A DNA stretch of 64,000 bases, taken from IMG/VR virus record IMGVR_UViG_3300028844_006787; one strand, written 5' to 3'. A model generated the notes under the pieces. It was not told where the DNA came from. It worked only from the letters and a program-made list of their open reading frames with translations, and ran no database searches. Position numbers and translations under genes: made by a program. Below, one piece after another: positions 2,873 through 38,837 of this stretch. Positions within the stretch are counted from its first letter, which is position 1. Each line of letters opens with the position of its first letter. This DNA is from a virus. Lineage: Duplodnaviria; Caudoviricetes.

Positions 2873-5800
2873 CTATTCTTTTATTTTTTGCATAGATATT
2901 ATTGCGTTGTCAATCCATGACTTAGGTATAGTATATTTATATGGATCATCTTCATTCTCAACACTACCTCGGGTAATCAACCACACAGTTGCTTTTAGTT
3001 CTTTATTTATTTTTGCATAATCCCCAACTTTGAATTGGTAGTTATCACCCGGTGGTACAGATTTTCGTGTACGTGGTTTTTTAAATTGTATAATACTTCC
3101 AACTTCTGGTGTTCCTGTTGGATCATCTTCATACTCAACGACTGCAACCTTTTCTTCTTCAGATATAGGTTCAATATTATCATCTTCTTCTGCCATTGCC
3201 TGAATTTGTTGTATTTCGTTGGTTTCGTTTACTTGGTCTTGAGTTGAAACGATTTCCCATTTTTTATTTGTACGTTGTCCTTTACCAAAATAACGGTTAA
3301 CATCATCATCACCATCGTACCATACAAATTTATTATTATTTATAATATCAATAATTTTGTAATAAGGAAATTTAGAATATTCTCTTATTATTTTATTAGG
3401 TTTACTGCCATCAACACTCGGTGAAGCAATTTTATCCTTCAATTTGATAATATCTCCAATAACAGGAATTCTATTTGAATTTTCCTTATACTCATCAAGT
3501 TCACCTGTTGTTCTTTGATCATCAGCATCATATATAAAATACTCAAAATCATCAGCAACACTATCATTGTCTGTATCCTTTAGTATTCTTAAAGTTATAC
3601 TTACTTCCTCACTTTCCTGACCAGTTTCACTTGTTGCAATTACTGAAAATTTAATTATTCCTAGTAAATCTTCAGATGGTGTATATTCAAAATTATTTTC
3701 CGATTTTGTAATCGTTGGATCATCTACTACCTCGTCATCTACTTTCAATATAAACGTATCAACATCCAGACTTGTCCAAGAAAATTTTGGTTTTTTATTT
3801 GTGGTAATATTCTTTTCTTCGTTGTGTGATAAATTAGTTGGTGTTTGTGGTATAATTTCTTCCAACGTTCTCGTAACAAATACGAATTTTCCACTAATGA
3901 TATTTCCTCCCGAGTCCACTTTTGCTCCCTGTGTCTCTACATTACCACGCAGTGTATATGGTCCGTATTGCAGATTGATTATATGTGATTTTGTCGGATG
4001 AACCCAAGTTACAATAGCATATGTTGGCATTCGTCCAAAAGTATCCCATCCTCCAGATTCAGGTGTGATTTGTACTTTTAAAGCGTCCGATGGTTTTTCC
4101 GGTGATGGTACAGAAAACTCAGGATTATTATATCCATCATCCCAAACGGAATATTCATATGATTGTGTTACTAATATATATTTTGCCGTTCCTATAAAAC
4201 GTACCAAGTTGCCTACTCTTGGTGCTAATCCAGGATTTGGTATTAAACTTTCAAGGTAGGATACATTATACTTTTTAGTAGGATCTGATTTCCAATAATC
4301 ATAAAAATCCGCAACTTCATCTTTATCAGTATCATGTGGTAAATGATAAGAACCAGAAGAATTAGTAACATTGCTTTCATTTCCGTAACTATCAATAGCA
4401 GTTACTTTAATTCTCCAAAATTTTCCACGTGAAAGAGATTTGGGTGGAGTAAATGAATTTGTTTTAACATTTCTAAGATCTAACAATTCTTCATCTTCTG
4501 ATGGAGGGCTCCATCCTGAACCCGTTTCAATGGTTGGTATATTATATGGTTCAGGCCATTCTTTTCCGTCTGCATCCGTGTATGTTGTGTCTGTAAAATC
4601 AACCGTACTACCATCTGGATCTTTATATGTTCCATCTTCTTGTTTGACCCATAAACTATTATTCGTATGTCCTATATGCAATTCACTTACATCATATTTA
4701 GCATCTGCATATTCAAGATCAATCCTATACTCATATGCATCATCAACTGCACCCCAACTCCATGTTGGTATATCATTGAAAAATTGTTCTACACCAAACG
4801 ATACAGGAAATGTTGGAGTTTCAAATTTTATATTTGTTACAGAATTTGGTGGAGTTAAATCTGTCATACGAATAGTATCATCTGCAGGTTCATCAGATGA
4901 AACACCTTGAAGATTAACCGCAACTACTTCAATTTTATATATGGAATCTAGTTTTACATCATCGAATGCGAATTGAGTTGAATTAACTTCTTCCTTAAGA
5001 ATTTCCACAAATTCACCCTCACCTGTAGGATTACCATTTTGGTCTGTTGTATTTAAATCTACTATATACTCTTTTAATGTAACTTCATAGTGACCATCTT
5101 CTGATGTAAAACCAAATAGATTCCATTTCCACTTTACTTTATCTGCCTCAATTTGGGATACATATTCACCACTATTAGAATATATTTCCACATTGTCTCC
5201 TGGAGTGTATTCATATCCTCCTTGCTCTGTAAGTTCCAAAGAATAAATGTTTGCAGGAGGATCTAAATTTATTGTAAGTTCACGTGACTCGGCAATTGTT
5301 GATTTTCTATTATCTGAATCATTATCCTTATTTTTGAATATAGTTTGAATTGTAAATTTGTATGTTCCATTTTGTAAAGCAATTTGCTTATCAGTAGCAT
5401 CGTTTCCACTTTTGAATAATAATACATCATCTGAATCGGTTACACCCGACACCTCAGACTCCACATTAAGTGTTGATGTGACATCATCCCATCCACCGGA
5501 ATCATTCTTTTTAAGCAAATGCCTTTCATAATAGGTATCTTCTTGAAAATTAATATCATAACCAGGATCGTCTGCGGAAAAAATACCTGGACTTTTATCA
5601 AATGAATACTTCCAAGTTGGATACACATTACTAGAAGAAGTAAAATTATCAATATTATCCACAATAATTTGTGGATGCTTTGGATATCCAGGTTGAATTA
5701 CAATTCTATCAGGATCACTTACCCACCGTGTTGCGTCTACATCATCAGGTAACCTATATAATTTAAAACCTTTACTCTCAGTTGAATAAACTCTGAATAC

Positions 5801-8800
5801 GAATTTTCCTTGAATTTTAAATTTTAATCCAATTATGTCATTTGCTTGCATTGTAATATTATTGTTCAATTCTACAACCTGATTATCATCGTTAATATAA
5901 ATCTCATTTAATGTAGTATTTTCGTTTAATCTAATTAAATCCGTTGGAATCCAATTATCCGTGTATGTTGCATATTCATCTTTATATAATCCCGATGCTT
6001 CCAAAGATTCTTCTGTGGTAATAGGTGCTACAACATCCCACAATCCTGAATTTGCACCAGTACCTGAATCACTTATTTTTATTTTAATTCGTCCGCCTGT
6101 GCCGGCCATCGGACCCCATTTGTATTCAGTATATGCGGAGTCTCTTTGATTTAGATATTCATCAACTACATAACCTGTACCACTGGGTGGGTTAGGTTTT
6201 TTAAATCCATGTCCCCTTTCAGGTGGCCAAAGAGTAGTTTCACACCCCCCATTCAAAAATACATATAATTCGGTTTCTGTGTCAGTTTTGTTTACTCCGT
6301 ATATAACTCCGTATTTTTTGCTAGTATCATGTGAACTAACATCTTGCTTTGAATTTGTTTGAAATTCATGTTCTATATAAAATTTTTGTTTTATTACTTC
6401 AGTAAAATCACCACTATTTACAAGAGTTGATTTAAGATACTTAGATATATCCCCCATCCCCGATGATTTTTGACGAGCACCAATTGCATTCTTTATCTGA
6501 TTATTCCGTGTTGTGTGGGGTGTATTTATGGCAGATTTATATCCGTTGAATAAATTTTTATGATCTATCATATTATCTAAAACACCATTTGTTCTTTCAC
6601 TATAATAAATTGGTGAAGCAATCATTGGATCATCTTCATTTACCCACACACCAGACCCGGTAGTCACTTGCTCGTGTGATCCCACGTGTTCAGGTAACTC
6701 AAATGTATAATCATCATTAAATCTAATAAAATCACCAATTTTGTATTCATATGAATTATCAGTATTAGTTTTATTATATAATTCCAATTCAAATAAACCA
6801 GGATGATGAGTAATATATGCATTTATTCGTTTTGATATTTCATCTTTGCTAACAAATGCAAACGCATACTCGTTATATTTTGCACTTAATAAACCTGTGT
6901 ATTTAGGTATTGTCTTGGGTTCTGTGTAATCATCCTCATCATGTGAACTTAATTGATTAAAATACTTATTTCCAGAACCAACTACAATTCTTGATTGTGC
7001 TTCGGTTGTATTACCGAAATTATCAGTTGATTCAACAAATAAAGTATACACTCCCTGATTTGCAAATTTTCTGGTGATCCTCTGTTTACCGAAGTTATTG
7101 CTCAAACGAGTTATCCATGCGAAGTTGTCAGCATCTCTACCAATTGGTACTATTTTGTATCTATTAGTAATTTGTAGAGGGGTTTTGTTATAGAATGGAT
7201 GCATAATAAAATCTATGTTTACTTTCATTAAATCTTTATCATTAGCATATATTTCATCTTTTAAATTAATTTTAGTTTTAACGTCACCAAACATTAACGA
7301 CTCAGAATATACAGGTTGTGTTATATAACCATCTGAACGAGTTGCTACAATTTCAAGTTCTGTTATGTATCCCCAATGATATTTTGAACTTAAATTTTCT
7401 TTATGCGTTGCAATATTTCTTGGTGTTATTTCATAATTACCTTGAAATAAACGAGTATTTTGGTCTGTTACAATATAAGAATTAATATAATCCGATGGAA
7501 TTTTAAATTCCGTTTCATCACCATCAATTGTATATTCTTTGATTCCAATAAACTTTTTTTCATATTTTGACAATTGTGAAAAATTTGCCTTCTTCAGACT
7601 AGTATCTACTTCTAAACCAGTGGAGCACCAGTAGTCTTCCCAACATTCATCGGTGTAACCGGGATGCTCTTTCATCCATTTATCCTGTTCTGTTGGTTGA
7701 TGTTTACCCCAATATAAGTTATCCCATTTCCCGAGGTTTCCATCAAGAACATTTGCGAACTCATGTGTAATTTTATAGGTTCTTAACTTTATAGTATAAG
7801 ATTGAGCAGCTGCTAAAGCATTCCATGTAAAAGAAAATTCAGCATCAGTTTCAGTGGTGTCAAGTTGATACGGGTCTACACAAGTCCAATTTGGTTTTTC
7901 ATTAGTATTTATCTTAACATAATTCTCTTGACGATAAAGACCTTTCCAATAACTTACAAACAATTTCCATCCATTTTCATAAAATGATTCATTGGCATAT
8001 GTTTGTGTATTATAAAATGCTTCTGTGGCAGATAAATTTATTTTTGAGGTGTATTTTTGTTTTAGATTATTTATTTCAAAACCTTGAGTTTCTACATCGC
8101 AATCAATTGTAATAACAGGTGAAGTTCTACTATAATTATGTATTCCATTATCAAGCAAATAACTTGTAACTTGTATATTGATGAGTCCAAGTTTCAATGA
8201 AAAGTGGTCTTTTAAGTCTATTTCACGTATATTATCAGTAGTCGCATCGTATTCAAAAGTTTTTTCTCCGAGTTTCTCGGTTGTTATATCTTCACCTTCT
8301 CCTGATACATCAAAAAGTTCGACTAAGTTACGATTAGTTTTATTACGATCACTTAGAGAATCAATGCTCCAAGATAATGTTTGATTATCACTATCATATG
8401 TCAATTGCGTAGGTAATATTCCTCTTACACTTTCTTTTGGATATGATGATGCAAGTTCATATGTAAATGATGCAGTAGGACTTTCAGTATAAACATCTAT
8501 TTCAAGGGTGTAATTATGTGCTACGAATGATGTATTAGAAGCATAAGTATCAATATATTCAAATACATCATAATAGTGTGTTTCAGGGGGTGCATCATCA
8601 CTATTATAATGTTGCAACTCCTCAAGTATATGCTCTTCCTCATGTACTACTTCCACACTCTGAGTATTACTACTTAGTGATCTTGATAATCTGAGTTTAT
8701 ATTTTTTGAAAATGGAATGATCTGTCATATCCAATGAGTATGCCCACTTCAATTCTACTTTATTATCCTTAATTTCTATTTGATAGTCCGAAGAATTATC

Positions 8801-11800
8801 AGTATGTTCTACCAACTCCACCGTATTTGAATCTAAATTAATTGTAAATGTACGAGTACCTAGTTTACCCCCAAAGTGGTAGATGTCAATATACACTTCA
8901 ATTGTTGTAACACTTGCATTTATGACTTCTCTAATAAAATTACTAGGTAGAACATATTCATAGTTTAGTAGATCTTGAGCATAGTTGGTTTGTGTATTTA
9001 AACTAGTTGTATAATACGAATTAACTCCCAACGAACCTTGATATTTCTTGGTAATACTTGGTGTTGATAATCCAATTTCAAGTTCATCTTCTTCAAATCT
9101 AACTTTATATGAAAACGGATATAATAAAGAATCAGAACGTGAATCAATACTTGGTTCTAAGTCAGTCCAATCAATTTTTATATCAGAACCCATGAATAAA
9201 TTCACAGAATCACCATCTGCTACGACATCATCATTAACTGTTATCTGAATATCATTTGCCGTGTTAGATGTGTTTTTTAACACCAAACGAGTTACATCGT
9301 AATCTACTACCAACTTATTATTAAATGCTTCATTATATAATTCATTATAATTAGAAACTTGTTGTTTAGTTGACTGATCATAAAAATATGTATTGCTAAG
9401 ATCACCAATTGGATAATCATAAGTTTCTCCGGATGAATTTGCTACTTTTACATGAATTTCGTAAATTCCAGCATCTAAATTACAATTTGGAATTTCTACA
9501 TCAACAAATCTAATTTTATTGGTAAGAGAATATTTGTAATTTTTTTCAGAATCGTAATCGGTTGTAGATACATAATTTAATCCATCGGTGCGTTCACGTC
9601 CATTAAAGTACATAATTCCATCGGTTATATATTCCGAAGCATTATCTCCTGTGGTAAATCCATCATTTAAACCATCATCGGTAATATTATTACCAACTGA
9701 TATTTTACCTAAGAACGAACCATGATATTTGTCTTCTTCAACACCACTTGTATTATCCCCATGTACCACTTTAAATAAACTTACCGATACAATTGAATCA
9801 CTTTCTGTTGTCTGATTTGAAGGTAACCATTCGTCTGCGATCGCCAATGTAACTTTAAAACTTTTTACTTGTTTATCTTTAGCATTAGAAACCGTTGCGT
9901 AATAAATGGGTTTGTGAAAATACCAAGGATGTGGATTTGTTGCATCTGTTGGATGATTTGCAATTATACTACCATTATGCTTTCTTATACTAACTTGGTT
10001 GGAAATTTCGGTATCACTTGTATCTAGTACTTTTAAATTAAAAGGCAAACATGACCTATTATGAGGTATTGCTTGTTCGTTCGTTTTTACCATGAAATAC
10101 ACATAATCTGAGTTTAGTGTGTTGTCGTTTTCATCTATTGCAACAACCCCAACTCCTATTTTGTAGTAACCCATAGGCACTTTGTAGTGCATGGTAAAAT
10201 TATTATCTGTAAAAAGTTGCGACTCAAATACTAGTTCTTCATCGAGGTAAACTTCTTCAGGTTTATATAATACTACACGATAATAAATTGTTTTGTAGTC
10301 ATTAGCAATATTATCAGCAAGTTTATTCCATGTTATATCCAATAGATTACTCGGTGATACATACCAAGTTTCACCGTATGCAGTTATTTCCTCAGGAGAA
10401 TCCGTTCCGAAATATTTTATTCCATCAACAATCAGATTATTTACACCAACTACCTGAATATCATAAGTTACTTGTCCACTTTCATTGCCCACCACATCTT
10501 TTGCAGACAAATATAGTGTATGTTTACCTACATCCAAATAATCAGTTGGAGTAAATTCAAGATCCGTTGTTGTTGTAACACTTGCAGTATCACTATTATC
10601 GTTTAAATAATAATTATATTCCGCACCTTCTTCAAGCAAAGTTTGTACAATATCTGTGTTATTTACTTTTTTATTTACAGGATTCCATTGCCAAGTTGGT
10701 GTTTTATTTGCAGTATAATTTATTAAATTACTTTTAAAAACAGGTTCAAATGGAGGCACATTATCATCATAGTTAGTTATTTCTGCTTCAGGTAAAACCA
10801 ATTCCCATTTATCGACACGATCAGTTCGTTTAACTAAAAACTCTTTTTCGGTTGAACCTTCAACTACGACTTTAATTAAAATAAATAAATGACTTAAATC
10901 TGCGTAATCAACTTCGTAGGTTTCTTCATTAATGGAATAAGATACAAAAGAATCGTCAGTTGTATCAAAATTGCTAACTACACGATAAAATTGATTTTTT
11001 GGCAAAATTTGACTATTATCCCTATCTTTAATAGAAACTACTTCAAGTGGTGCTTTGGTTTTAATAAAATTATTGGGTTTTACAGGAATACCAGGAGCAA
11101 ATCCATAAGTTTCAACCGCAGCCAAATCTATATCATCATAATACCAAACTTTTGTTGGAACATTAGGACCTGTATCACGTGTCGAAGTATTTGAATCTTG
11201 CCATTCTATGACTCCACCTAAATTTAATCCAAGATATGCTTCTATTATATTGAAAATAGAATCCTTTGTATACTTATCCGAAGAATACCCTAATTTTCTC
11301 ATCCGTTGTTTCATGTCTTTGACATATCTATCAAAGTTTTCGGTAATTATATCTTCAAATGCGTTTAAAAATGAACTAAATGGTGTTGGTATTTTTTTAT
11401 ATCGTGATATAGAACTATTATATTCATATATAAAAACACCACCAGAAATATTACATCTACTATTTATCCACAACCTTCTTGCTCCAGGTGCATTTATGGT
11501 GATAGTATTACCATTGGTTGATATAGAAACTTCACTACCGAACAAATACGATTTTCTTTTTATTCCATCTAAATCTGTAAACTCAGATATGGGAGAATAT
11601 ATAGTGCGGTCTGCACTTTCCATTGATATTTCATTTTGTGGATTTAAAATCCACATATCACTTTCTGCATCATAATTAAATACTTTTACACAATCCTTGG
11701 TGGTCAATTTGTTTGCCGATACAACTAATATATTTCCATCACCACTTATATCAAAATCTCCATGTTCATTGCAATCGAGATAACTTATACCCTGACCTTT

Positions 11801-19099: not shown

Positions 19100-19153
19100 G
19101 TTTCCCTAATATGTATTTTAAATAAATATTATTATTGTGTAATTTATTTAGTT

Positions 19154-23239: not shown

Positions 23240-23256
23240 TTTAATTCATTCTCCAT

Positions 23257-26200: not shown

Positions 26201-29200
26201 GATAAATCAATTTCAAATTTTTTCTTTACTAGTTTATATTGCATTACACCACTCGGAGTATTTTCATTTACTAAATTAGTAGCAACAGATACAAGTGAAC
26301 TATGTCCATTGTGTCCATTTGCAAATACATTAAAAGTGTGCCCATTGACAACAAATTCTCCTGTTTTAAAACCAGATATATAATCAGTTTCAAATATTGG
26401 TGTACTTAAGTTTTCACCTTGTGTGTCTGTTTTAAAGATTTCTATTTTTGCAAGAGTTTCATTATCACCTTCGGTTAAATCAGCATAATCAAAATCTATA
26501 CCGAATTTTCCTGAGGAGAACCGACTATCTATTTTTCTGTATGAAGCAATTTCTATTGTAAATTTTTCTAGTTTTTTATTATTCTGATTATCATCTTTGA
26601 GTGGTAAAAAATACCAACTAGAGTTTTCCCACGAGGTTCCTGCCGTATTACTAATAGTTCCATCAAATGGATCATCTCTAGGTTCATCAAGATAATCATA
26701 ATCACTTACTTCTTCATGTATCTCAATATTTTGGTCTTGATCATTCGTTGCACTTGTTATTTTCCAACCTCTTAATATTGGATTATTAATTGTATAACCA
26801 ATATCTTTAAATGTTTTTGTAGTAAAACTATCACTTAGTATATATCTTCTCTTGGTAGTTTCGGGCATAATGCGTTCAGGATCTAAGTAAAAATTAGTTT
26901 CTGTATCTCCTACAACGAATATTCTAATATGATATGTGTTTTTTTCTATTGCAAATGGAAACTTATATGATGTTTCAGATATTTCATCTGAAGTATAAAT
27001 TAATTCGTCCACATCAGTATCTAAACTTTCACTATTAGGATCATTTGCTTTCCATAATTGTAATATATACCCAATGTTACTCCATGTTAATTGATACTCG
27101 TCATTTGCGGTTGCCACCGCATTGTTATATGCATCATCTAACACATCGTTCCAAGAAAATATTGGATTTTCTTGATCATCTATTTCAATTGAAGTTATAT
27201 TGACCTGCGGAGAAACGGCATCTGTGTCTAATTTGTAAAAGCATTTAGCATCACTTGCTTCTGATGTGTTTGTTGAATCATCTTTTGCAGTTATACGAAA
27301 ATGATTCTCGGCATTACTTGAAAAATCACGATATGTCGATTTATCAAAACCATTAATATTTGTTGAAGAAATCCAATGATTACCTATATAAGTAACATCT
27401 GTTGGAAACTCATGCCAAGTAGTTCCGTTTCCACTTTCTCGCATTTCCACTAAATATGCAGGATTTTCTTCGTGTACAACTTTTTCTAAATTTTTACTTG
27501 AAAGTCGTTTATATGCAGTATCCCACTCAAGTGAAAGATAATTCTGAGTTTTATATGCAATTGCATAGTTTTTGGAAGGATAGTTTTTACTTTGATAAAT
27601 TTCGTCTATTTTGTGTGGTGGTAACTCATCAGGAGATGCAAAACCTGGACGAACTAAATTCCATGTATATTCTCCACGTGATTCACGATTTAACAAATAA
27701 GTTCCTGCAACTGAATTATTATCAATTACCTCGATTGCAATGTATCTATCGGATATATCTTTTTTTATTGATTTGTTGTTTTTCTCATCAATGGAATAAC
27801 CTACAAGTGGAACTAAATCAAATGTATTTACAACTTTATATATTTGAAGTTTTGGCAATACAACAGATACACGAAAATCGTTGATATTAAATACTTCAAC
27901 ACTTGAAAAGGTTTTAATAAAATCACCAACAATGATTTCTGTTTCACCTGCAATTGGCCAATTTTTTATTTCCTCGAAAGTTCTTCCGAGTTCATCATCA
28001 TAAAACCAAGAAGTAGATGGACCTTTTGGTCCTGAATTTCTAATACTTACATTTTGTTGAGTATTAAAATTTAAATTTCCTTTTATTTTAAATACATTAG
28101 TTCCAAGATAATGATTGTCTTCACCTCCTGTACTTTTTTCTATAAGTGAGGTTTTTCTTAAACTATATTCACCCTCAAAGTCATAAGCATTTATATCACT
28201 AAATGTTATACCGTATGCTTGTTTATATTTATTTGATATATTTTTAAATATTTTGTCTTGAACTGATTCTTCTAGTGCAGATAATGGTGATACTTGTGGA
28301 ATCCATTCATTATCTCCTGCGTTCTCATACACGATGATTCTTCCAGTTGTTCTTGCATCAGGAATTTCTGAATTGATTCCGTGGGGTGCAGAAACTACAA
28401 TTGAGTTTCCATCATAGGAAAGTTTTATTTCACTTCCATATCCATTATCAGCAATCTCTGCATCTAGTCTTACAAGTTCATGTGTAAACTTATGATTTAT
28501 ATTATCCGATTCAACTAATTTATATTTACTTCTTTTATATGCACTTGAAAAATCTTGGGCATTTACATCTATTGAACGTTCTTTAGTTTTTGTTTCGTCC
28601 CATTTATTCTCTACTTCATTTAATGTAAATATTGTAAAACTTGCATCATCCTCTGTGACTTTTGATAATGCAAGAGTTTTTCCGTCACCTGATAAACTAA
28701 CATCTCCACGTTCATTTACAAATCTATTGTTAATGAATCCTTGACCAAGTTGTACCCAATTGTCGTGATCTAATGTATCTACTTTAAATACTTTTACGAG
28801 CATTATATTTGTATTATCTCGTTTGAGTCCAGGTCTTAATTTAACTGCCATCGTAGATCCATCGTCACTTAAAACGATTTTTTCCGCAGAAAATTCAGCA
28901 GCCGAATTTACCCAAGGACTTCTTCCTGCTGTTTCGGCACTTATATAATCTACATTTTGTGAATCAACTGAGTCTGATTCAACGGATAAATTGTAACTTT
29001 CAAAATCTGGTCTTTTAAAAGAACCTCCTTTTGATGCAGATTCCATATAATCAGATGGATTATATTCGTCTGTAAGATGTCCTCCCCAATTTATATATTT
29101 GTATTCCGTATCAACTGAGTTGGTTGATGTATCTACACCAATTGTTGCAATTATAGGTGTATGTGAAAGTATTTTTTTCTTTGGAGTAATATAGGAATCC

Positions 29201-32200
29201 AATAACACCGCATATACTTTTTCTGAATTACCGTATGCTCCGTATATGTTTGTTTGAGATACTCCGTTTTTATCATAAGCAGTCACACGAATCTGACGAT
29301 TATATCTTATGTCATTTGGATGAAACAATGCGTTCGTGTCTACATCGTCTTCTATTTTTTGTCCTTCTACACGAAAATATATATTTTGATTATAATCGTT
29401 ATATTTTAAACTAAACTCCACATTTGCATTGTATATATTTGCATAAACAGTACTACCATCATCCATTAATTTGTTATATTCACGTTTAGGTTCGTTTAAT
29501 TTTGGTAGAGTGGTTTTAGAATGCCATGTATTTGGATTCTTGGTTAGTTCAGTCTCAGCACTATCACACCAAACAATATCCCAATCAGAATAACAAGTCT
29601 TTTTATACGATACTTCGTAGTACACATATTGATTGTGAGGCCATTGAAATTGTACGTCTGCGATAGGTCTTGTTAAATTTGCCCCACTTGTTAATGAGTA
29701 AGAAGAAGGTGAGTCGTAATGTTTTGTAAGTATAGTATCATTACTTTCACTATAATTTGCAAGTTTTATATCAAATTCAACAAAATCTTCATCAACTTTA
29801 TTTTCCACGTCAGGTGTACTAAGCAATCCAATTGCAACTTTATTGCCACTTCTACTCATTGCAATATTGTTTCCTGCAAATTGCACATTTTTGTCAAATT
29901 CAGGAACATTTATTTCTTGGAACTTATTTGAATACGAAAATAGTTTCCATTCACCACTTGGTTTTTCAAACTTTGAAAACTTTACTGCTATACCAGAATT
30001 TATATTTTCCTTGCCACTATTTGCAGTATCTCTTTCATTACCATCACCACACGGAGGTAGACTTGTAACGATTGTATCACGTTCATATGCATCTAATCTA
30101 AAAGTGCGAGCATAATCTTTTAATATTTTTAAATCATTATTAGAGTTAAATGGTTCGGACTCAGTTTTTAGAATACGTGCATTAGAATTCCACCCTAAAC
30201 CTATATCATTTATTTTAATTGAGTATTTTTGAACACTTGGTAATTTTCCGTTTACACTTGAATCACCAAATGCAATTAAAGAACCATCTTCATTTGAACA
30301 CATAGTAGTATATCCAAGCAATTCAAAATATTTTCCGGTTGGTTTATCGTGATTAAATTGCTTTTGAGTACTACTTTTTTCAAACACTTTAGTAACATTC
30401 TTTTGTGAATCTTCCGTGAAAATATACATTGAATAGCCATCTTCTGCTCTTGGTTTCCAATCTAAATTATCAACTACTAAATTGTAATCGTGTCCATTTT
30501 CATATGAATATCTACTAACTCTGTGTGTAACACCTGCAGGAAACCATTTTTTCACTATCTGTTTTAGCTTTCTACCTTTATAAGTGGTTTTATATCGAAT
30601 TTCGTTCGTATAGTTTCTATCTTGAAATTTAGATGAACTTACAATTACTTTTTGTGAATCTTGAGTGTGAAATAAATTACAATCTGATGGTAGTGGTATT
30701 GGTTGATATGAAGTCCAACCAGAACCACTTTGATTAAATCTAGCAGATAATAAATAATCGTCTCCTGTGTATACATCAGTTCCTTTTATAGAAACTGCCA
30801 TACCTATTTTAACGTTATCTGAATCCAACTCTGATATATCATTTGTTATTTCACTTGGTGGAAGAATAACAGAATTTGAACGCATTACATTACCACGCAT
30901 TCCTGCTGGTCCTAGTGTAGAAATGTATTGAGTAATACTACGGTCTGCTCCTGCATCATCTAATTGAGCATCTGTATACCATATTCCAAATTGTAATTGC
31001 TTTCCTTCTCCAGGAATACCCTCTGTGCTAATTGGAATAACGGATATAACATTAATTTCACCACCTGTCTTCAATCCATCTGTATCTAATGATAAAGTAA
31101 ATGATGCAGAAGATTCCTCATATGAGTTGTCGTCTCTATCAACCTCTAAAATATTAGAACCCCATTTAACTTCATAGTATGCTATTTCTTCTCTATCAGC
31201 AGATTCATCGGTTTCCACAAATTTTATATTTGCGGGTTCATTATATCGTATGATATTTTTTCCAGATACCTCAGTATTTAACAATTCAATACTCTTTGGT
31301 GGTTTTGGAGTTTCAAAATTTACACTAATTGTATGTGTAAACTCTTGTGATTTCTGTCCCGATGCCAATACCGCAGTTACTCCAAGTGTATAATCACCTT
31401 CACTGTCAAATGTTTCCGAGAATATATTTCTAATACCTTTTTCAAAATAATCCAACTCTTTGGTTATTGTAAGTTCACTTTTAAATTTACTTGATGTGTC
31501 TATTCCTGTGATTTCATTTTTTACAGGTTCATCATTTAAGGTTAATTCATAATACCTTATCTTTGGTGAAAGATTATTGTAATTTTCTTCGTCCTTAAAG
31601 TGCCATTCCCATTCAACCAAGGGTAAATTTGTTTTATTTGGAAGTGTATCTCTTACTAAACCACTTGCAAACTCAACCTGTACATCGGTGTTAACAAGTG
31701 ATTTCCAATTAATTTTAAAATCTTCTGATAATGATTCTTGATTTGATTCATCCAGTGCGACTACATTAATCTCCATGGCCTCATCACCACTAATTGTTAT
31801 ACTATTTTCTTTTATATAATCAGATATATCAAAATAATTATTTTCTAAGATAAATGATTCAGCATTTCCGACTTTAACTTTATATTTGTAAGAGAGTCCT
31901 AGTTTTTCTAATCCGTTTACTTGAATTCCACCAAAAAGGTTTGGAAGATTGCTTCCGAAATTTTCCCACTCTAAATATAAATTAGTTTCTTCGGTGTTTA
32001 CTTCAGCAGTATTTGTATCTCGGTCAAACGGATATACATGATTTTTATCTGAATATGTTGCTAGTTTGGTAAATGTTATTTTTTTAAATACAAATCCAAG
32101 TTCGAATTCATATCCATCACTTGGTAATATTGCTGAATTTGAAGAAACCGTTCTTAATGATATTGTTCTTTTTTCAAATGAAATAGGATTTGGATACTGA

Positions 32201-35200
32201 ATTATGCCTTTATTACTTATTTTTACTTTTGCAAAATCTCCTCCATTTACAGACAACTCAAATGAAGTAGTTTGATTTGTAGAAATTCTATTAACAGAAT
32301 CACCAAATATACCATATGGATATGATGGGTTTATATTAGCACTATCATATTCATCTAACCCCCAACCAGAATTATCACCACTCGTTTTAAGTAATGCAGG
32401 AAGATTTCCAAGCTTTAGTGATAATTTACCAGGTGCTTCGTCTAATATATCGTAACTTTCAATAGTAGGTGTTTTTAATTTTCTTAAATCATAAATTAAT
32501 GGTGAACTTACTTCCCATTGTGAATCTTTGGTTTCACCCTCAAGTCTTACCCTTATTCTAAAGTAATGCAATCTTTGATTATTTTCATTATCTGCATTGC
32601 TTCTGAGTTCCTTAATTAGATCCGTAATTGGTTGCGTGTCGAAACTTGTTTCAAGATAACCTATAAAATTAGAATTGGAAGTATCATTAGGATGTTCTCT
32701 TTGTAATTGTTCATACAAATCATCTAAATTTACTATATGTTTTGTTACAGGTATATATTTATTAGATTGATCTGTTGCATTTGTATTTCTCATGTATCCT
32801 GCGGTAATAGTTTTCCAACTTCCATTGTCTGATACTGATTCAATTTCATTTCCATTTAATACATCTATTGAAGTATTTGCATCTAAACTCGATTCCCAAC
32901 GTTTCACGTCAAATACAAAGTTAACTTGACCCATCTCACTTGAAATTGGGTTTGGCCAAGGAAGATGCACAGATGCTTCGGTTTTTTCATTTATATCATT
33001 GTTTCTGAAACTAAATGTAGGTGAAAACCCAACCTCTGATCCAGAATCAAAATTCGACACAAAATTTGTTAATGATACATCAAAGTTTGTTTCTGCTATA
33101 TCCGTGTAAAGTCCTGATTCCACACGTGTATTATACTCTGAGTTTGATTCGAATGGTAATTGATCATCACGCAAAGTGTCAACTGCACCTAACTTAATTT
33201 TATAGTATCCTGCTTTAAAATATTGTTTTAAGTCTAATACAGTTCCGAACTTTTTAAGTGTACTTGTAGACTCGTTTCTTAAAACATTATAATTAAAAAA
33301 GGTTAATTCACGTGTAGGACTTGTGGGATACTCCTCTGCCTCGGTTTGCTTCCAATAAAAATCTAGTTTCCATTTATATATAGGAATATTAAGTTTATCT
33401 GTTTCGGATTGGTTATATTCCCAAGTTATATCAATAGTGTCATTTCCCAAAATAACATAACTTGATTCAGTTGTAAAAGATACATTGGCATAGCCTTTTG
33501 ATGTATCCCTAAATCTATGTGGTGGTGAAAAATATAATTTTGGATGTGATACACACCACTCTGAACGCAATCCATTTTTTAAAACTCTGCGTACATAAAC
33601 ACCAATTACATTAGATTCTCCATCCAACGATGCTAATTTGTAAAACTTTGCTAATGATTCGTTGTGACCATATTGAATCGACATTTGTTGTCCAACGGAA
33701 CGTGGTTCTACTGAAAATATTTTTGCAGGTTTTCTACTTCCACTATTATTTACGTCAGAATCAATACTAAGATCACTTGGAATTTCAGGAGGAGTTACAT
33801 TTTCTGATTCAGTTGATGTTTTATCACAAATCCAAACCATTCTTTGCTCACCAAAATTAAATGTAGAAAACTTGTATTCATATTTATGAAAAACGTCTTG
33901 CTCTTCGTTAGCAACACTTGGATTTACAATTTCAAAAGTAGGTAAATATGGATCATAGTTGTGATCTGTAGATAAAATTATATCACTAGGTTTTGCAGGA
34001 GGTCCAAAAACTAAAGAATAAATTTCTGCACCGGTATCTGTAAAATCATCTTGAATTTCTGCTAATGCATTTTCAATTTCACTCTCTGTATCAGAATCCA
34101 ATGCCCACCAACCTTCAGTCGCATTTGAGGGGTTATCTAAGTCCGTTCTTACAAAAGTTTTGATTAGATAATCTTCAAGTATTTTTTGTATTGATGCAAC
34201 TTTTCCGGCAACCTTTACAAAATCTTTAGATATTTTGTTTGATGCAGATACTTCTCCTGTTCTTGATCCAGTCGCAATATTTGTTAATGTGTTTATATTA
34301 TTGAATATTGGAGTAGCAATTTGTCGTACAATCGTTGCCAACTTAGAAAAGTCAATTTTACTTTTATCTTTATCACCTTCATGATACCAGTACCACACAT
34401 TACTTTTGTCCAAGGTTTTATGATATTTTCGTGTAATATCTCTTGATCTACAACCATTAAATGGATCACCACAAAGTTTATCTGTTGCTAATAAAATGTG
34501 TTCAATAACGTTTTCATCAAGAAGATAATCGTCACCTGTTTTATCGTGAGAAAAGTCTGTTCCAACTGATTGGTAGGAATTGGGCATCTCAGCATAATTT
34601 AAAATAGTTCCTGCAATGCCAAAATATACTTGTAAATCGTCACGAACTGAATAATCATATTCGTCTGTTTTAAGAATACCATTTAAAATATATTTTATTA
34701 TTTCTTTATATGAATTTAATTTTATATTAAATTTCAATAATTCAACATCCTGGTTTGCAATATAATCTACTGATTTAAGTTGCCCATCATTGAGTCCAAA
34801 CTTATGTTTTAATAATTTATTTGCGACTAAATTAGAATTATTATGCCATCGTAGTAGAGCATCGGTTTCTGAACTAAGTGTACCTTCGTCATCATCTAGT
34901 TGTTCCGAAAAAGGATAATAAATATATTCATCCATTAATCTCGATTTTAAAGTTGATAGTGGTGTTACAAATATCTCAGTATCTTTTTCGTCAGATGAAA
35001 GTGGTTTATCTAGGATAATTTCAAACTTATCTGTTTCATCAAGAATTATATTAGATAATTTATCTCTAGTTTCTTTTTTAATATCATTAAGTTCTACACC
35101 CCCACCACTTAATTCAATTTTTAAGACTCTAGGTATATCAGTTTTTAATAATCTAATTGCAAAACTTCCGTCTTCTCCGGTAGATGTTTGTTCACCATAT

Positions 35201-36528
35201 TCATATTTTCCAATTGTGTAGTAATTCTCAAATTCATAAAGCCGCATATCCAATTTCGTTGGTTCAATTTTCGTTCTTTCATCGTAAGCATAAACCTTAA
35301 CATTTGCATTTGCTATATAACCATCAAGTCCTTTTCCATAGAATGTTACATATTCAACAGGAACCGGAGTTTCAAGAGTTTCTGCAATTTCCTTTAGAAT
35401 ATTATTTTTTAGATTATCAATATATTCAACACCACGTAACCATTCAATTTCTCCTGTTGCAGGATCTTGACGACCAAGTCCATTTGTATATTGATTTGAA
35501 TTATACAAAAAATGTAAATTATAGTCTTCAGGTGTCTCAAGATTATTACCACCTACATTTCCAAGACCATCCAATTCTTCAAACAAATGACCACCACCCA
35601 CTTTCATTGTAATTGGTATAGTTGGGTCAGTAAGTATATCTTCAATTTGATTACCTAGATTATATAGATTGACAAGTTCCTCTGATATATTATCATCGGT
35701 ACGGTCTATTTGATTTTCCTCGTTTGGAAGAACCGAGAGATTCGGAAATATATCCTCGGTATATTCACCTGGAATCGGAGTAGATTTTAACAAATCCTGA
35801 AATAATATATCAGTTTGAAAATTATACGCAAAGATTGTAAAACTGAATATACCTGCATAGTCTTTATATAAATTTGGTGAATTCGAATTTGCTTTATCTG
35901 CTTTTAACTTTTTTCCAATATGCACCATAGAACGACACGCACCATATCCACCACCCTCGTGACTTCCAAATAAAAGAAATTGTCGTTTCTCGTCCCCACC
36001 AAGTTCTGTGTAGTGTTCGATTTCTGTGATAATAACTTCTTCTACAAATTGCTCAAGAGTTCTACTTGTATGTGCATATGTTTCGTTGTTTGGTATTGTT
36101 TCAAGATAATTAGTATACCATGCACCCTTGCGGTCTCTAACAAACAAAAAGTCAGTATCATTTACGTTCCACGTTGTTGTGGTATGTATACTATTATCTG
36201 TTAATTGTGATCCATCTATAAAGTCAAAAAACGATTGAGCAAATGAAATATTTGTATGATCACCTTCGGTAACATTATATGTCTCAAGTCCATCTACAAA
36301 CGGACACTTAAGTGGTTCAATATTATCTTCAAATTTTTCACACGGTGAAAAAACAACCATAAAGTTTTTTGCACGAACTATTGCTCCGTCAGCAGCTTTC
36401 GGATTATTATAATACATTACCGCATCTGTATCAATTGGATGTATTAAATCATCAATGCCAACTCCACCATACAACGCTTCTCTGAGTTCCTGTGTATTAC
36501 CGAAAATTTGTTTTATATCTGTTACCAT
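23257..36528 (-). CDS. Giant 4423-aa protein collinear with the N-terminal three-quarters of the 5408-aa protein
   Basis: Shared blocks DIKQIFGN, VFSPCEKFEDNIEP, DGYIANAN, ETxLYLEW, WHFK, ELDYFEK; ends in an R/W/Y-rich tail. Confidence 0.8.
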   Translation of the reverse strand: MVTDIKQIFGNTQELREALYGGVGIDDLIHPIDTDAVMYYNNPKAADGAIVRAKNFMVVFSPCEKFEDNIEPLKCPFVDGLETYNVTEGDHTNISFAQSFFDFIDGSQLTDNSIHTTTTWNVNDTDFLFVRDRKGAWYTNYLETIPNNETYAHTSRTLEQFVEEVIITEIEHYTELGGDEKRQFLLFGSHEGGGYGACRSMVHIGKKLKADKANSNSPNLYKDYAGIFSFTIFAYNFQTDILFQDLLKSTPIPGEYTEDIFPNLSVLPNEENQIDRTDDNISEELVNLYNLGNQIEDILTDPTIPITMKVGGGHLFEELDGLGNVGGNNLETPEDYNLHFLYNSNQYTNGLGRQDPATGEIEWLRGVEYIDNLKNNILKEIAETLETPVPVEYVTFYGKGLDGYIANANVKVYAYDERTKIEPTKLDMRLYEFENYYTIGKYEYGEQTSTGEDGSFAIRLLKTDIPRVLKIELSGGGVELNDIKKETRDKLSNIILDETDKFEIILDKPLSSDEKDTEIFVTPLSTLKSRLMDEYIYYPFSEQLDDDEGTLSSETDALLRWHNNSNLVANKLLKHKFGLNDGQLKSVDYIANQDVELLKFNIKLNSYKEIIKYILNGILKTDEYDYSVRDDLQVYFGIAGTILNYAEMPNSYQSVGTDFSHDKTGDDYLLDENVIEHILLATDKLCGDPFNGCRSRDITRKYHKTLDKSNVWYWYHEGDKDKSKIDFSKLATIVRQIATPIFNNINTLTNIATGSRTGEVSASNKISKDFVKVAGKVASIQKILEDYLIKTFVRTDLDNPSNATEGWWALDSDTESEIENALAEIQDDFTDTGAEIYSLVFGPPAKPSDIILSTDHNYDPYLPTFEIVNPSVANEEQDVFHKYEYKFSTFNFGEQRMVWICDKTSTESENVTPPEIPSDLSIDSDVNNSGSRKPAKIFSVEPRSVGQQMSIQYGHNESLAKFYKLASLDGESNVIGVYVRRVLKNGLRSEWCVSHPKLYFSPPHRFRDTSKGYANVSFTTESSYVILGNDTIDITWEYNQSETDKLNIPIYKWKLDFYWKQTEAEEYPTSPTRELTFFNYNVLRNESTSTLKKFGTVLDLKQYFKAGYYKIKLGAVDTLRDDQLPFESNSEYNTRVESGLYTDIAETNFDVSLTNFVSNFDSGSEVGFSPTFSFRNNDINEKTEASVHLPWPNPISSEMGQVNFVFDVKRWESSLDANTSIDVLNGNEIESVSDNGSWKTITAGYMRNTNATDQSNKYIPVTKHIVNLDDLYEQLQREHPNDTSNSNFIGYLETSFDTQPITDLIKELRSNADNENNQRLHYFRIRVRLEGETKDSQWEVSSPLIYDLRKLKTPTIESYDILDEAPGKLSLKLGNLPALLKTSGDNSGWGLDEYDSANINPSYPYGIFGDSVNRISTNQTTSFELSVNGGDFAKVKISNKGIIQYPNPISFEKRTISLRTVSSNSAILPSDGYEFELGFVFKKITFTKLATYSDKNHVYPFDRDTNTAEVNTEETNLYLEWENFGSNLPNLFGGIQVNGLEKLGLSYKYKVKVGNAESFILENNYFDISDYIKENSITISGDEAMEINVVALDESNQESLSEDFKINWKSLVNTDVQVEFASGLVRDTLPNKTNLPLVEWEWHFKDEENYNNLSPKIRYYELTLNDEPVKNEITGIDTSSKFKSELTITKELDYFEKGIRNIFSETFDSEGDYTLGVTAVLASGQKSQEFTHTISVNFETPKPPKSIELLNTEVSGKNIIRYNEPANIKFVETDESADREEIAYYEVKWGSNILEVDRDDNSYEESSASFTLSLDTDGLKTGGEINVISVIPISTEGIPGEGKQLQFGIWYTDAQLDDAGADRSITQYISTLGPAGMRGNVMRSNSVILPPSEITNDISELDSDNVKIGMAVSIKGTDVYTGDDYLLSARFNQSGSGWTSYQPIPLPSDCNLFHTQDSQKVIVSSSKFQDRNYTNEIRYKTTYKGRKLKQIVKKWFPAGVTHRVSRYSYENGHDYNLVVDNLDWKPRAEDGYSMYIFTEDSQKNVTKVFEKSSTQKQFNHDKPTGKYFELLGYTTMCSNEDGSLIAFGDSSVNGKLPSVQKYSIKINDIGLGWNSNARILKTESEPFNSNNDLKILKDYARTFRLDAYERDTIVTSLPPCGDGNERDTANSGKENINSGIAVKFSKFEKPSGEWKLFSYSNKFQEINVPEFDKNVQFAGNNIAMSRSGNKVAIGLLSTPDVENKVDEDFVEFDIKLANYSESNDTILTKHYDSPSSYSLTSGANLTRPIADVQFQWPHNQYVYYEVSYKKTCYSDWDIVWCDSAETELTKNPNTWHSKTTLPKLNEPKREYNKLMDDGSTVYANIYNANVEFSLKYNDYNQNIYFRVEGQKIEDDVDTNALFHPNDIRYNRQIRVTAYDKNGVSQTNIYGAYGNSEKVYAVLLDSYITPKKKILSHTPIIATIGVDTSTNSVDTEYKYINWGGHLTDEYNPSDYMESASKGGSFKRPDFESYNLSVESDSVDSQNVDYISAETAGRSPWVNSAAEFSAEKIVLSDDGSTMAVKLRPGLKRDNTNIMLVKVFKVDTLDHDNWVQLGQGFINNRFVNERGDVSLSGDGKTLALSKVTEDDASFTIFTLNEVENKWDETKTKERSIDVNAQDFSSAYKRSKYKLVESDNINHKFTHELVRLDAEIADNGYGSEIKLSYDGNSIVVSAPHGINSEIPDARTTGRIIVYENAGDNEWIPQVSPLSALEESVQDKIFKNISNKYKQAYGITFSDINAYDFEGEYSLRKTSLIEKSTGGEDNHYLGTNVFKIKGNLNFNTQQNVSIRNSGPKGPSTSWFYDDELGRTFEEIKNWPIAGETEIIVGDFIKTFSSVEVFNINDFRVSVVLPKLQIYKVVNTFDLVPLVGYSIDEKNNKSIKKDISDRYIAIEVIDNNSVAGTYLLNRESRGEYTWNLVRPGFASPDELPPHKIDEIYQSKNYPSKNYAIAYKTQNYLSLEWDTAYKRLSSKNLEKVVHEENPAYLVEMRESGNGTTWHEFPTDVTYIGNHWISSTNINGFDKSTYRDFSSNAENHFRITAKDDSTNTSEASDAKCFYKLDTDAVSPQVNITSIEIDDQENPIFSWNDVLDDAYNNAVATANDEYQLTWSNIGYILQLWKANDPNSESLDTDVDELIYTSDEISETSYKFPFAIEKNTYHIRIFVVGDTETNFYLDPERIMPETTKRRYILSDSFTTKTFKDIGYTINNPILRGWKITSATNDQDQNIEIHEEVSDYDYLDEPRDDPFDGTISNTAGTSWENSSWYFLPLKDDNQNNKKLEKFTIEIASYRKIDSRFSSGKFGIDFDYADLTEGDNETLAKIEIFKTDTQGENLSTPIFETDYISGFKTGEFVVNGHTFNVFANGHNGHSSLVSVATNLVNENTPSGVMQYKLVKKKFEIDLSAIGGLLPDKYNVRIKMHSPIDDSLSNVTEWNESNHRLYVLNKFSVNTNGDLSPSISGGYLDSTENVKIGEPITINWNDISPTTDSSYEPLIYKVTFNNSTLTDDLNDTRKTSKYKDDVKNKTNLKISRKSDQLFQYVIPADVYSITNTTNIKGTLTTYLYDMPLNSAEFNFTLFENKLDMFMYEEGGSGIEHKTGDTMKWAYYLDVKDTSHELVFDKYELELYRLKTRDLLLGPLAQRTKVGTTITRSVNATDGGVEALTASSPNNAYEFYDEFEYSLNGVSFDDFYTFELHITAYDKFGGTTRLIDGKSFAPTFTNPTLNLNNLGILSWSIPDVTARKTTSIVVKIMNGETEEHQEIISYDNKANDNTLEYALTTSGVPSGITYNVIVNLKYYDETITEDNVSWDATHDDLANVRNIRVKNTPTMFIPSQNNFFHDAEEDEMWSSTMVQNANGELEKVVWNERPEFICINPIPDKGNFVDEDNDAFYWTWDPVQGADGYKTEVKTFRLFQTWLTDTPNDPNDDWYATEQTNNPVEQTTGDPGLLYKYTSYYVEEVGEEDDEHLREISYKDEIMHKSDNQRELSQDFLDEYVTSSEAARPDINRKVGDWGILNSIYNESDEKLKSLVQRNHFLGFMHICLITPYTLDASEYVYGETQSSEPIMFSEFKPRVDISGIKQYITNEENLDLVFTVKNDSVFLPIELEDSKNDNVINPISNITITLTDATRANPTEHIVTIDSSTQTGELKLDNHDLIGTYTLKVVATSQFDTKFEQEINYEVVPNKGYFKDLPTKFNVGEYEDITVAQSQRPIADAKAPTIELPLDSFEHDEDAIASYLNKFADYDYTEQQIESYFSSVSEDSNVTYLPGDIIEFKIPQTPIGTNKSGTYTQNYINYEEYSVGYRKYIETNTKTITTTTNNRRRNNTNTYNNWYFHHRWWRYRWGYWYYNRAWTWRRRYHYVYSRGRWRYSYGYYRSWGRYYL

Positions 36529-36617
36529 AAGTCTTCCAAACTTTAAATATTAAATCATTACAAGAATCCTTTGTATTTTTTTCATTTCAATTGTTTATTT
36601 TATAGATAAGTTTATAT

Positions 36618-36645
36618 AAAAAGAGAACACCGAAGTGTTCTCTTT
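36618..36645 (-). terminator. Rho-independent terminator
   Basis: AAAGAGAACAC-TTCG-GTGTTCTCTTT then T-run; cUUCGg tetraloop. Confidence 0.85.
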
Positions 36646-36697
36646 AAAAAATTTTACTTAATTTTTTATTATTGAATTTTAATTTTCATCTGTACTA

Positions 36698-37849
36698 CTA
36701 AGAACCAGCATTTGTGTTGTCTAAGATTTTGTCTAAAAACATATTTTTTAAATTAGATATAAATGTTACTTTTGAATATGTAATTGTACCATCTTCTGCT
36801 GTATCACCAAAAACATTCATTTGTTCGTTTCGGTATAAACCATAACTATTGTATCCACCTGGTGTGGAATAATCTACTGCGTTGTTGGTGATAGCCTCTT
36901 CGGTATGACCACCACCGATATACATTTTGACCCACTTTACACTATTTCCATCAACATCAGTTTGAGTGGCATCTAGCATCTCAAGTAACTTTGGATATAA
37001 TACATAGTTGGAATGCCAATCATTCTCAAAATCACTTACTCCGTATGGTGCATTTGCATCAGATTTAAATACAATTTCTTCATCAAACAAATTAAATTGT
37101 TCATCAGTTGGATTCCAATTATGTGGTTGTGGATACATATGATCTTTAAGAGTTGTACCGTCACCCGGATCTGATCCCGTATAAGGTTGTTCTGGTACAC
37201 TCATTAAATCCGTTTGGAAGTTATACCCAAAAAGATTCAGATTATAATTCTTGTTGTCACCATCTATTTTATCAAACAATGCACAAGCAAATCTAAATGC
37301 ACCATATCCTGCACCTTCGTGACCACCCACAACACTTATATTTGAATAATTATCATATCCATCGATATAGTCTTCGTAAACATCAGCTGCAAACTCTTCA
37401 AGAGTTTGACGATCTTCACTTGGATTTTCATCGGTTGCATTTTCAACGTTTGTTACAATTCCATTCATATACCACTTCGCAGATTTATCACGAATAAACA
37501 TTATATCTGCATCATTACCAGTCCATGCTTCGGTTTTTTCAGAAACCGTTCCATTATTATAATCTAATAGATTTTGTGTGCCATCTAGATAATCAATTAT
37601 ATTTTGACTAAAATTAGCTCCTCCTGTTGAAATTTGATAGTTTGGAAACTCTTCTACAAACTTAGGTACACTATCTGAGTTTGGTGAAAAAACTATAATC
37701 AACGAAGTTCTCACAGACTCTTGTTGCTTCAGCAGAATAACATCATGCTCATAATTTGCGTCACCGTGTGCGGTTTTGAAACTGCCATATGAGTTATCTC
37801 CGTCACCAGTTACATTTTTTCGAAATTGTTTTATATCACTCCATGCCAT
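36698..37849 (-). CDS. 383-aa standalone homologue of the N-terminal domain of the two giant proteins
   Basis: SDIKQ, IVFSP, FIRDKxxxWY, GGHEGAGYGA, YNFQTD, GGGH, NLKN all shared; GGAGA RBS. Confidence 0.8.
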   Translation of the reverse strand: MAWSDIKQFRKNVTGDGDNSYGSFKTAHGDANYEHDVILLKQQESVRTSLIIVFSPNSDSVPKFVEEFPNYQISTGGANFSQNIIDYLDGTQNLLDYNNGTVSEKTEAWTGNDADIMFIRDKSAKWYMNGIVTNVENATDENPSEDRQTLEEFAADVYEDYIDGYDNYSNISVVGGHEGAGYGAFRFACALFDKIDGDNKNYNLNLFGYNFQTDLMSVPEQPYTGSDPGDGTTLKDHMYPQPHNWNPTDEQFNLFDEEIVFKSDANAPYGVSDFENDWHSNYVLYPKLLEMLDATQTDVDGNSVKWVKMYIGGGHTEEAITNNAVDYSTPGGYNSYGLYRNEQMNVFGDTAEDGTITYSKVTFISNLKNMFLDKILDNTNAGS

Positions 37850-38339: not shown

Positions 38340-38340
38340 A

Positions 38341-38484
38341 TTAACTAAATATAAATCCTAAAAATACAAAAATTAAAATATAAGGTGTTAAATAAAATAT
38401 GCTTTGAGTAATTGCCCACGCATAAAAATCTGAAAATGCTTCGTTAAACTCAGCAACTTCTTTTTGTGATAACTTTTTTTTCAT
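38341..38484 (-). CDS. Small single-TM protein (47 aa)
   Basis: Not in track; MKKKLSQKEVAEFNEAFSDFYAWAITQSIFYLTPYILIFVFLGFIFS* fills the gap between neighbours exactly. Confidence 0.55.
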   Translation of the reverse strand: MKKKLSQKEVAEFNEAFSDFYAWAITQSIFYLTPYILIFVFLGFIFS

Positions 38485-38487
38485 ATA

Positions 38488-38829: not shown

Positions 38830-38837
38830 AGTCTAAT

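Follow-up and report, generated by a model that had tools for sequence, protein, structure and literature searches.

A predicted alpha/beta-hydrolase-fold head domain shared by a short protein and two giant proteins of an uncultured marine phage

In the current analysis we have studied a window of 64,000 nucleotides (nt) from an uncultured marine phage of the Caudoviricetes (IMG/VR record IMGVR_UViG_3300028844_006787), in which a short protein and the N-termini of two giant proteins share a domain of about 390 amino acid residues (aa). This domain is referred to as the head, the standalone gene as the free copy and the N-terminus of a larger protein as a fused copy. The free copy is S383 (383 aa, 36698..37849). 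It is accompanied by a giant of 4423 aa, G4423 (23257..36528), an open reading frame (ORF) of 1361 aa, M1361 (19154..23239), and a second, unsplit giant of 5408 aa, G5408 (2873..19099). All four are encoded on the minus strand, as is every large ORF of the window, and the GC content is 31-33% over most of its length. The block of S383 and the giants covers 34,977 nt or 55% of the window, in keeping with the initial annotation, which was made from the letters and had placed the family over more than half of it. The giants make up about 16% of the ~222-kb phage genome.

Over its full length S383 can be aligned at 27-34% identity with residues 1 to ~390 of either giant, and the BLASTP comparisons with the two giants give E-values of 3e-24 and 4e-19. 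The earlier claim that the 383-aa protein is wholly homologous to the N-termini of both giants is thereby borne out, and the motifs DIKQ, VFSP, F[IV]RD, WY, HEG[AG]GYGA, YNFQTD, GGGH and NLKN were all found in the order that had been claimed. The head of G4423 (~aa 1-390, 35359..36528, minus strand) carries the elbow motif GSHEGGGYGA and that of G5408 comprises aa 1-392 (17924..19099, minus strand). The DGYIANAN motif reported to follow the domain in the giants is also present, with DGYIANA at residue 402 of G4423 and residue 408 of G5408. The giants are 40% identical to each other over residues 1-632/1-594 (E-value 9e-120) and are collinear paralogues further along their length too. The heads of S383, G4423 and G5408 are paralogues. 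The longest DNA match between the giant genes (36272-36381 and 18843-18952, 110 nt, 83% identical) spans a segment of the head that is conserved in the fused copies only.

The initial annotation had counted two giants of more than 5400 aa. One protein, G5408, is of this size. The other, of 4423 aa, is extended by M1361, which runs collinear with the final ~1150 aa of G5408 (aa ~4260-5364), the BLASTP segments being 120-622/4261-4760, 845-904/4889-4950 and 1131-1315/5172-5364. The ORFs of G4423 and M1361 are 17 nt apart (window 23239-23259) and together encode 5784 aa. The second giant is predicted to be a 5784-aa protein divided into two ORFs, with G4423 as its first part. The split is kept in a relative locus, L012, as 4412 + 1348 aa, and the sole relatives of M1361 in 5.8 billion clusters measure 1348 and 1370 aa. 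Since relatives keep the split at 52-75% identity, it is neither an error of sequencing nor the mark of a recent pseudogene.

The fold of the head was addressed with three models, namely an AlphaFold2 (AF2) model of S383 with a predicted local distance difference test score (pLDDT) of 54 and a predicted template modelling (TM) score of 0.63, an AF2 model of residues 1-640 of G5408 (pLDDT 63, ~70 over residues 1-400) and a model from the ESM Atlas. All three match alpha/beta hydrolases. Structure prediction with Foldseek, which had been proposed as a check for the 383-aa protein, gives this fold with antigen 85C, 85A and 85B as best matches (probability 1.0). In an exhaustive VIA search the G5408 model is matched over residues 9-398 with Z scores of 12.0-9.3, and 50 of the 50 top rows are alpha/beta hydrolases. 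The S383 model gives Z scores of 9.9-8.2 with nearly all the top rows from the same fold, and the ESM Atlas model gives TM scores by row of 0.75 and 0.69. The VIA matches include the non-catalytic MPT51, feruloyl esterases and the capsule O-acetyltransferase CsaC. The central, mostly parallel beta-sheet with its flanking helices is matched across the domain. On the sequence level the head has no Pfam match at E <= 1, no PHROG, NCBIfam or PADLOC match and no relevant match among PDB profiles. According to the models the head is a very divergent alpha/beta-hydrolase-fold domain. A match to a characterised family of known role had been named as an outcome that would overturn the docking proposal of the initial annotation; the head falls into the alpha/beta-hydrolase superfamily by its predicted fold, but into no characterised family by sequence.

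The G5408 model shows the layout of a nucleophile elbow, with a strand at 184-192, the turn G-G-H-E-G-A-G and a helix at 197-217, and the same layout is seen in the S383 model. The Glu at this elbow (residue 178 of S383, codon 37316-37318, minus strand; Glu195 of G5408) is invariant in 16 of 16 sequences, and a catalytic nucleophile Ser, Cys or Asp is found at the elbow in none of them. According to the models, the head would carry Glu in place of the nucleophile Ser. In reviews of the fold the nucleophile is given as Ser, Cys or Asp, rarely as a His or Ala variant, and Glu is not listed (PMC3531081, PMC11878206).

Proteins of the esterase D/antigen 85/feruloyl-esterase type (PF00756 and neighbours) have the same fold as that predicted for the head and are among its best structural neighbours, with VIA Z scores of 11.5 for Ag85A (1sfr), 11.4 for a feruloyl esterase (7xrt), 11.1 for MPT51 (1r88) and 10.9 for the S-formylglutathione hydrolase FrmB (7l0a). 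The elbow reads G-H-E-G-A-G-Y-G-A in the head and G-H-S-M-G-G-L-G-A in FrmB of E. coli. A profile-profile comparison (hhalign) with E. coli FrmB/YeiG aligns 16 columns, at the elbow only, with a probability of 0.6%, which is not significant; this sole aligned stretch puts the elbow Glu on Ser145 of E. coli FrmB. With this value and the lack of a Pfam match at E <= 1, membership of PF00756 by sequence was rejected. Unlike these enzymes, the head has no homology to them by sequence (Pfam, NCBIfam, PDB profiles), has Glu for Ser, has ~60 aa inserted between core strands and a stretch of ~60 aa that separates the invariant His from the C-terminal helix, and is fused to arms of several thousand residues.

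Across the 16 sequences 38 columns are invariant, and 18 of the 38 are polar. In the numbering of G5408 the invariant residues include Ser61, Arg133-Asp134, Glu195, Asn240-Phe-Gln242-x-Asp244, Gly316-x-Gly-His319-x-x-Glu322 and Lys380-Asn381. The polar ones directly follow the strands 55-62, 127-134, 184-192, 232-239, 311-316 and 373-376, and their clusters map to what is the active-site face of the fold (PMC11878206). Of the two strands beyond the elbow helix, one is followed by Asp244 and the other by His319, and by its spacing the His appears to lie after beta7 and not after beta8.

These residues occupy the classical catalytic loops and bring in the serious, if rather unlikely, alternative that the head is an active enzyme with a non-canonical site, having Glu at the nucleophile position and His, Asp and Glu nearby. 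The free copy could then be a soluble enzyme and the giants could tether the same activity, with a host envelope polymer or a phage glycan as substrate. Asp is an established alternative nucleophile, so that a carboxylate has precedent (PMC11878206), but a Glu nucleophile is absent from the reviews cited above and the apparent position of the His makes a canonical triad doubtful. The conserved His is in any case common in non-catalytic members of the fold and is no marker of activity (PMC3531081). The carbohydrate esterases and CsaC among the structural neighbours and the glycan-synthesis cluster next door are in line with an enzyme, as is the persistence of the residues of the predicted pocket in the free copy despite fast change elsewhere; a whole-gene ratio of nonsynonymous to synonymous substitution rates (dN/dS) of 0.8 is very high for one.

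Binding proteins that have this fold without catalysis are also known, namely the neuroligins, thyroglobulin's C-terminal domain, DPP6/DPP10 and Arb2 (PMC3531081, PMC11878206). Like the head they miss the canonical nucleophile, and they bind partners. DPP10 and thyroglobulin are among the structural matches of the head. Gly occupies the nucleophile position in the neuroligins. These binders differ from the head in being eukaryotic and unrelated to it in sequence, and the head has an invariant Glu together with other invariant polar residues on the active face.

A HMMER profile search of 1.84 billion representatives has identified 6 clusters of the head family. JGI metagenomes add 3 loci, all from lineages already known, and a search of IMG/VR revealed no relative of the head. 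A search by shared words for longer fused forms found none. By these searches the head family is tiny. Its members fall into three lineages, which are the window type (with the loci L001 and L015), the type of L012 and L008, and the distant type of L005. The gene order of L012/L008 is that of the window, with a rhomboid gene, small ORFs, DoxX, the short copy, a giant of 4412 aa, an ORF of 1348 aa and a second giant. In L005 a free copy of 421 aa lies directly upstream of a fused protein of 1284 aa, P0012 (L005 6283-10137), which comprises the head, two metalloprotease-like regions with HExxH and an FG-GAP-like C-terminus. In Pfam P0012 matches Peptidase_M10 with 30.6 bits, above the cut-off, and M8 with 21.9 bits. 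Its neighbours are a DNA ligase, a polyprenyl synthetase and a peptidyl-prolyl isomerase. Beyond the free/fused pair L005 has nothing in common with the window.

In a maximum-likelihood tree the free copies lie on one side of a branch and the fused heads on the other, with support of 100/99. Because this branch separates free from fused copies, the duplication that gave rise to them is older than the three lineages, and the pair is old and has stayed together from then on. The short-plus-giant gene order for which a search of viral metagenomes had been proposed is accordingly present as the same pair in the relatives and as a short and a fused protein in L005, with none in IMG/VR.

The two members of the pair evolve very differently. 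The dN/dS ratios were computed with the Nei-Gojobori method and bootstrapped, and are given with 95% confidence intervals (CI). For S383 in the window lineage the ratio is 0.82-0.89 (CI 0.56-1.42) and for the free copy in the L005 lineage 0.73 (CI 0.56-1.00). The fused heads give 0.22-0.24 (CI 0.15-0.35), the giant body 0.45 (CI 0.37-0.54), M1361 0.57 (CI 0.48-0.69) and the neighbouring backbone genes 0.07-0.08 (CI 0.02-0.20). The free copy is the fastest-evolving gene of its region in two independent lineages. The S383 protein is 73% identical to its counterpart in L001 and 45% to that in L012, the giants are 67-86% identical to their relatives, and the flanking proteins (rhomboid, a 113-aa ORF and DoxX) are 96-100% identical. 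The nucleotide identity to L012 falls from 94-98% to ~60% exactly over S383. The excess of replacements is distributed along the entire gene, and the free copy retains little besides the fold and the pocket residues. The long-distance comparison of S383 with L012 gives a dN/dS of 0.40, and the free copy is therefore considered functional. A pure replacement of the gene as a cassette was found insufficient to explain its divergence, dS being 2-10 times that of the flanks but dN ~25 times. S383 was also rejected as the target of a diversity-generating retroelement, as no template-like repeat and no direct repeat involving its coding sequence was found, although no search for a reverse transcriptase was made. 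The only direct repeat near S383, at 36636-36685, is a weak intergenic AT-rich match.

These rates bear on the proposal of the initial annotation that the short protein is an abundant subunit of a lattice or appendage, with the giants as minor subunits at equivalent sites. The domain is indeed common to the short protein and the giants, and the pair is old and always adjacent. S383 also has a terminator-like hairpin of its own (36620..36645, minus strand), 53 nt past its stop codon, with 11 bp, a UUCG loop and a U-rich tail; its fold energy of -14.5 kcal/mol (z -5.2) was equalled by 0 of 200 shuffles, and a consensus terminator scan did not report it. This hairpin suggests that S383 is transcribed as a separate unit, which could be expressed strongly. 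The reading of the short protein as a conserved abundant subunit is weakened because the free copy has a dN/dS of 0.73-0.89 against 0.07-0.08 for its neighbours; its identity of 45-73% between near-identical genomes contrasts with the 96-100% of the flanks, and the short copies do not have in common a segment that is conserved in the fused heads. We consider the lattice very unlikely. The idea of a shared socket, which formed part of it, is retained in the explanation favoured below. An inference on late promoters from the motif TATAAATA was dropped, as 11 occurrences were found in the window against 13.4 expected; the motif is not enriched and therefore no expression timing is claimed.

The segment that distinguishes the fused heads lies at aa ~51-100, where the giant paralogues are 76-80% identical against 27-43% between the free alleles of the window type and the L012 type. 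Gene conversion as its cause was rejected, the proportion of synonymous differences (pS 0.43) being no lower than in several other windows of the alignment (0.44-0.51). Since the synonymous differences are not unusually low, the conservation is ascribed to purifying selection. The segment may be a docking surface, or a contact with downstream domains that are missing from the free copy.

The bodies of the giants following the head are referred to as arms. They are acidic, with net charges of -254 and -314, and Cys-poor. Except for a short repeat at the C-terminus they are free of internal sequence repeats, and no signal peptide or secretion signal was found. In G5408 a beta-sandwich is predicted to start at DGYIANAN (aa 399-485, 17645..17905, minus strand; AF2 secondary structure, block-mean pLDDT ~60-79) and is followed in the model by a low-confidence helical region. 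The sole Pfam match in the giants above the curated cut-off is a bacterial immunoglobulin (Ig)-like domain, Big_13 (G5408 aa 5093-5172, 3584..3823, minus strand). Matches to Cadherin, fn3 and PKD are below the Pfam threshold, and the two calcium-binding-type motifs DxDxDGxxD are both in M1361, with none elsewhere in the giants. The ESM Atlas yielded nothing usable for M1361. The Ig/FN3-like, propeller-like and calcium-binding modules which the initial annotation had seen in the giants could be verified only weakly, to the extent of the one Big_13 domain and the motifs of M1361, but the Cadherin, fn3 and PKD matches stay sub-threshold. The arms are probably rich in Ig-like domains, and they could extend well over 100 nm if they are mostly made of beta-sandwich modules of ~100 aa.

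In these features the giants resemble decoration proteins of the T4 Hoc type and giant bacterial Ig-like or calcium-binding adhesins, which are also acidic and Cys-poor and have the domains matched weakly here (Big_13, Cadherin, fn3, PKD) and calcium-binding-type motifs. They differ from these proteins in having no tandem repeats and no secretion signal. T4 Hoc is an Ig-like array that is anchored by its C-terminus. A C-terminal domain is common to G5408 (aa 5172-5364, 3008..3586, minus strand) and M1361 (aa 1131-1315, window 19295-19849), and it could be a common anchor, as in Hoc, with the head at the distal tip, where it would bind or modify a conserved ligand, and with a soluble free copy. 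Anchors are normally the conserved end, but this domain is the most variable part of G5408 between relatives. Compared with P0011, a relative of 5392 aa, G5408 is 80-90% identical in its N-terminal part and 34% in the 200-aa bin from residue 5201, and the dN/dS of 0.57 for the C-terminal ORF, M1361, stands against 0.23 for the head. The fused protein of L005, moreover, keeps the head without this C-terminal domain. Anchoring by the C-terminus is highly improbable on these grounds, and decoration of the Hoc type with a conserved C-terminal capsid-binding domain was rejected, the polarity of conservation being opposite to that of Hoc.

Among the relatives a conserved N-terminal module is thus joined to a variable C-terminal part. 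Mounting by the N-terminus is favoured because this is the polarity of phage fibres. Proteins that keep a conserved anchor at the N-terminus and exchange their distal domains are established in other phages, as are truncated proteins that consist of the anchor only (PMC6872550). The reading that we favour, with a probability of about 0.4, is that the head serves for mounting or binding and bears long adhesin-like arms. The pair is an old two-gene set, in which one copy stands free and the other forms the constant N-terminal head on a variable cargo, the cargo being an acidic, non-repetitive arm of ~5400-5800 aa in the window and a putative zinc metalloprotease plus propeller in L005. The head would act as a socket in which the former active-site face is retained for binding or for unusual chemistry, with the other surface free to vary, and it would mount the arms, as long adhesin-like fibres, on a common conserved target that is probably a site on the virion. 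The free copy, with its pocket residues kept and the remainder near-neutral or diversifying, would behave like an exposed, lightly constrained or arms-race protein. We regard the paralogy, the fold, the Glu at the elbow, the rarity of the family, the age of the pair and the gradient of rates as established, and the virion mounting, the fibre role and the pocket-binding role as inferred. Of the docking or polymerising domain with adhesin-like arms put forward by the initial annotation, the constant head with variable cargo agrees with the dN/dS gradient and the cargo of L005, and the short protein as a conserved abundant subunit is not supported.

The likeness to phage receptor-binding proteins with an N-terminal anchor extends to the common N-terminal module, the conserved N-terminus with variable C-terminus and the anchor-only forms. 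Known phage anchors have 30-300 aa, are parts of trimeric fibres and do not adopt enzyme folds, whereas the head is a predicted hydrolase fold of ~390 aa. S383 is an old, separately evolving gene, unlike the truncated anchor-only proteins, and the arms are 10-20 times longer than known ones. No homology of the head to the N-terminus of T7 gp17, to T4 gp10-like proteins or to a tail-fibre family was detected in Pfam, PHROG or by tblastn against GenBank phages.

Several observations weigh against the favoured mounting role. The head has no PHROG or Pfam match to a known structural, anchor or tail-fibre family, and tblastn of the head and of ~5000 aa of the giant body found nothing in 50,697 GenBank phages. 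The fibres of phages are usually trimeric, and the giants show no sign of trimerisation. The genes sit among small membrane-protein and accessory genes with no recognisable structural module. So many polar invariant residues are no less typical of a functioning enzyme than of a site for binding, the single pocket which they may line is deduced from strand ends in the models, and the confidence of these models is modest (pLDDT 54 and 63). The difference at aa ~51-100 also indicates that the free and fused copies are under unlike surface constraints.

The accessory setting, between early-type small genes and auxiliary metabolic genes, raises the question of whether these are proteins of the virion at all. 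They could instead be non-virion accessory proteins, either intracellular or set free at lysis, for host takeover or anti-defence or as released adhesins, with the head as a partner-binding or targeting module. The fast change of the free copy is like that of counter-defence genes, a 66-nt repeat flanks the whole block, and the L005 pair has small ORFs and a DNA ligase around it. On the other side, external structural arms accord better with a phage that devotes 35 kb of its ~222-kb genome to proteins that are acidic and Cys-poor, match Ig-like domains weakly and have no signal peptide, and no PADLOC match was found. We regard a non-virion role as unlikely. A doubtful further possibility is that the head represents a new functional type within the fold, the elbow Glu serving as a carboxylate nucleophile or in a covalent or metal-mediated link that would lock arms or cargo to the particle, with the free paralogue as a fast-evolving exposed partner.

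If the head is a mounting socket, it would be a plug-in module that bears either a protease or arms exceeding 5000 residues, and a new kind of anchor for phage surface display, which could account for the unusually long appendages of a large marine phage. If it is catalytic, the elbow Glu would be a nucleophile so far unlisted for an enzyme fold that is among the best studied. The giants themselves stand out by having no internal repeats and no relative in cultured phages. The dN/dS of ~0.8 for free and ~0.2 for fused copies in two lineages provides a natural experiment on how fusion alters the constraints on a domain.

The region upstream of the block (37923-42253) holds a series of genes for small membrane proteins, namely a DoxX_2-like protein of 138 aa, a rhomboid protease of 228 aa and a glycine-zipper protein of 195 aa, which are 96-100% identical in relatives. 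A 66-nt direct repeat (2768-2833 and 40039-40104, 89% identical) flanks a 37-kb block that extends from a 174-aa ORF to the end of G5408. On the coding strand each copy comprises a promoter-like stretch TTGACT...TAATCT and the start of a small ORF, of 162 aa (DUF7717) and of 174 aa. The repeat could drive deletion or exchange of the block. Within the 174-aa ORF (39578-40102) a second drop in identity to L012 is seen at 39650-39950, with 61-62% against 89-99% around it, and the 174-aa protein shares 68% identity with that of L012 and 98% with that of L001.

A conventional phage fibre of 1945 aa without the head is encoded at 49673-55510 and has collagen triple-helix repeats, a Laminin_G_3 domain and the chaperone domain Peptidase_S74. 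A subtilase follows, whose Pro-rich tandem repeat of 30 nt lies at 48471-48620. The window also encodes glycosyltransferases and CysD/CysN-type genes and has PHROG matches.

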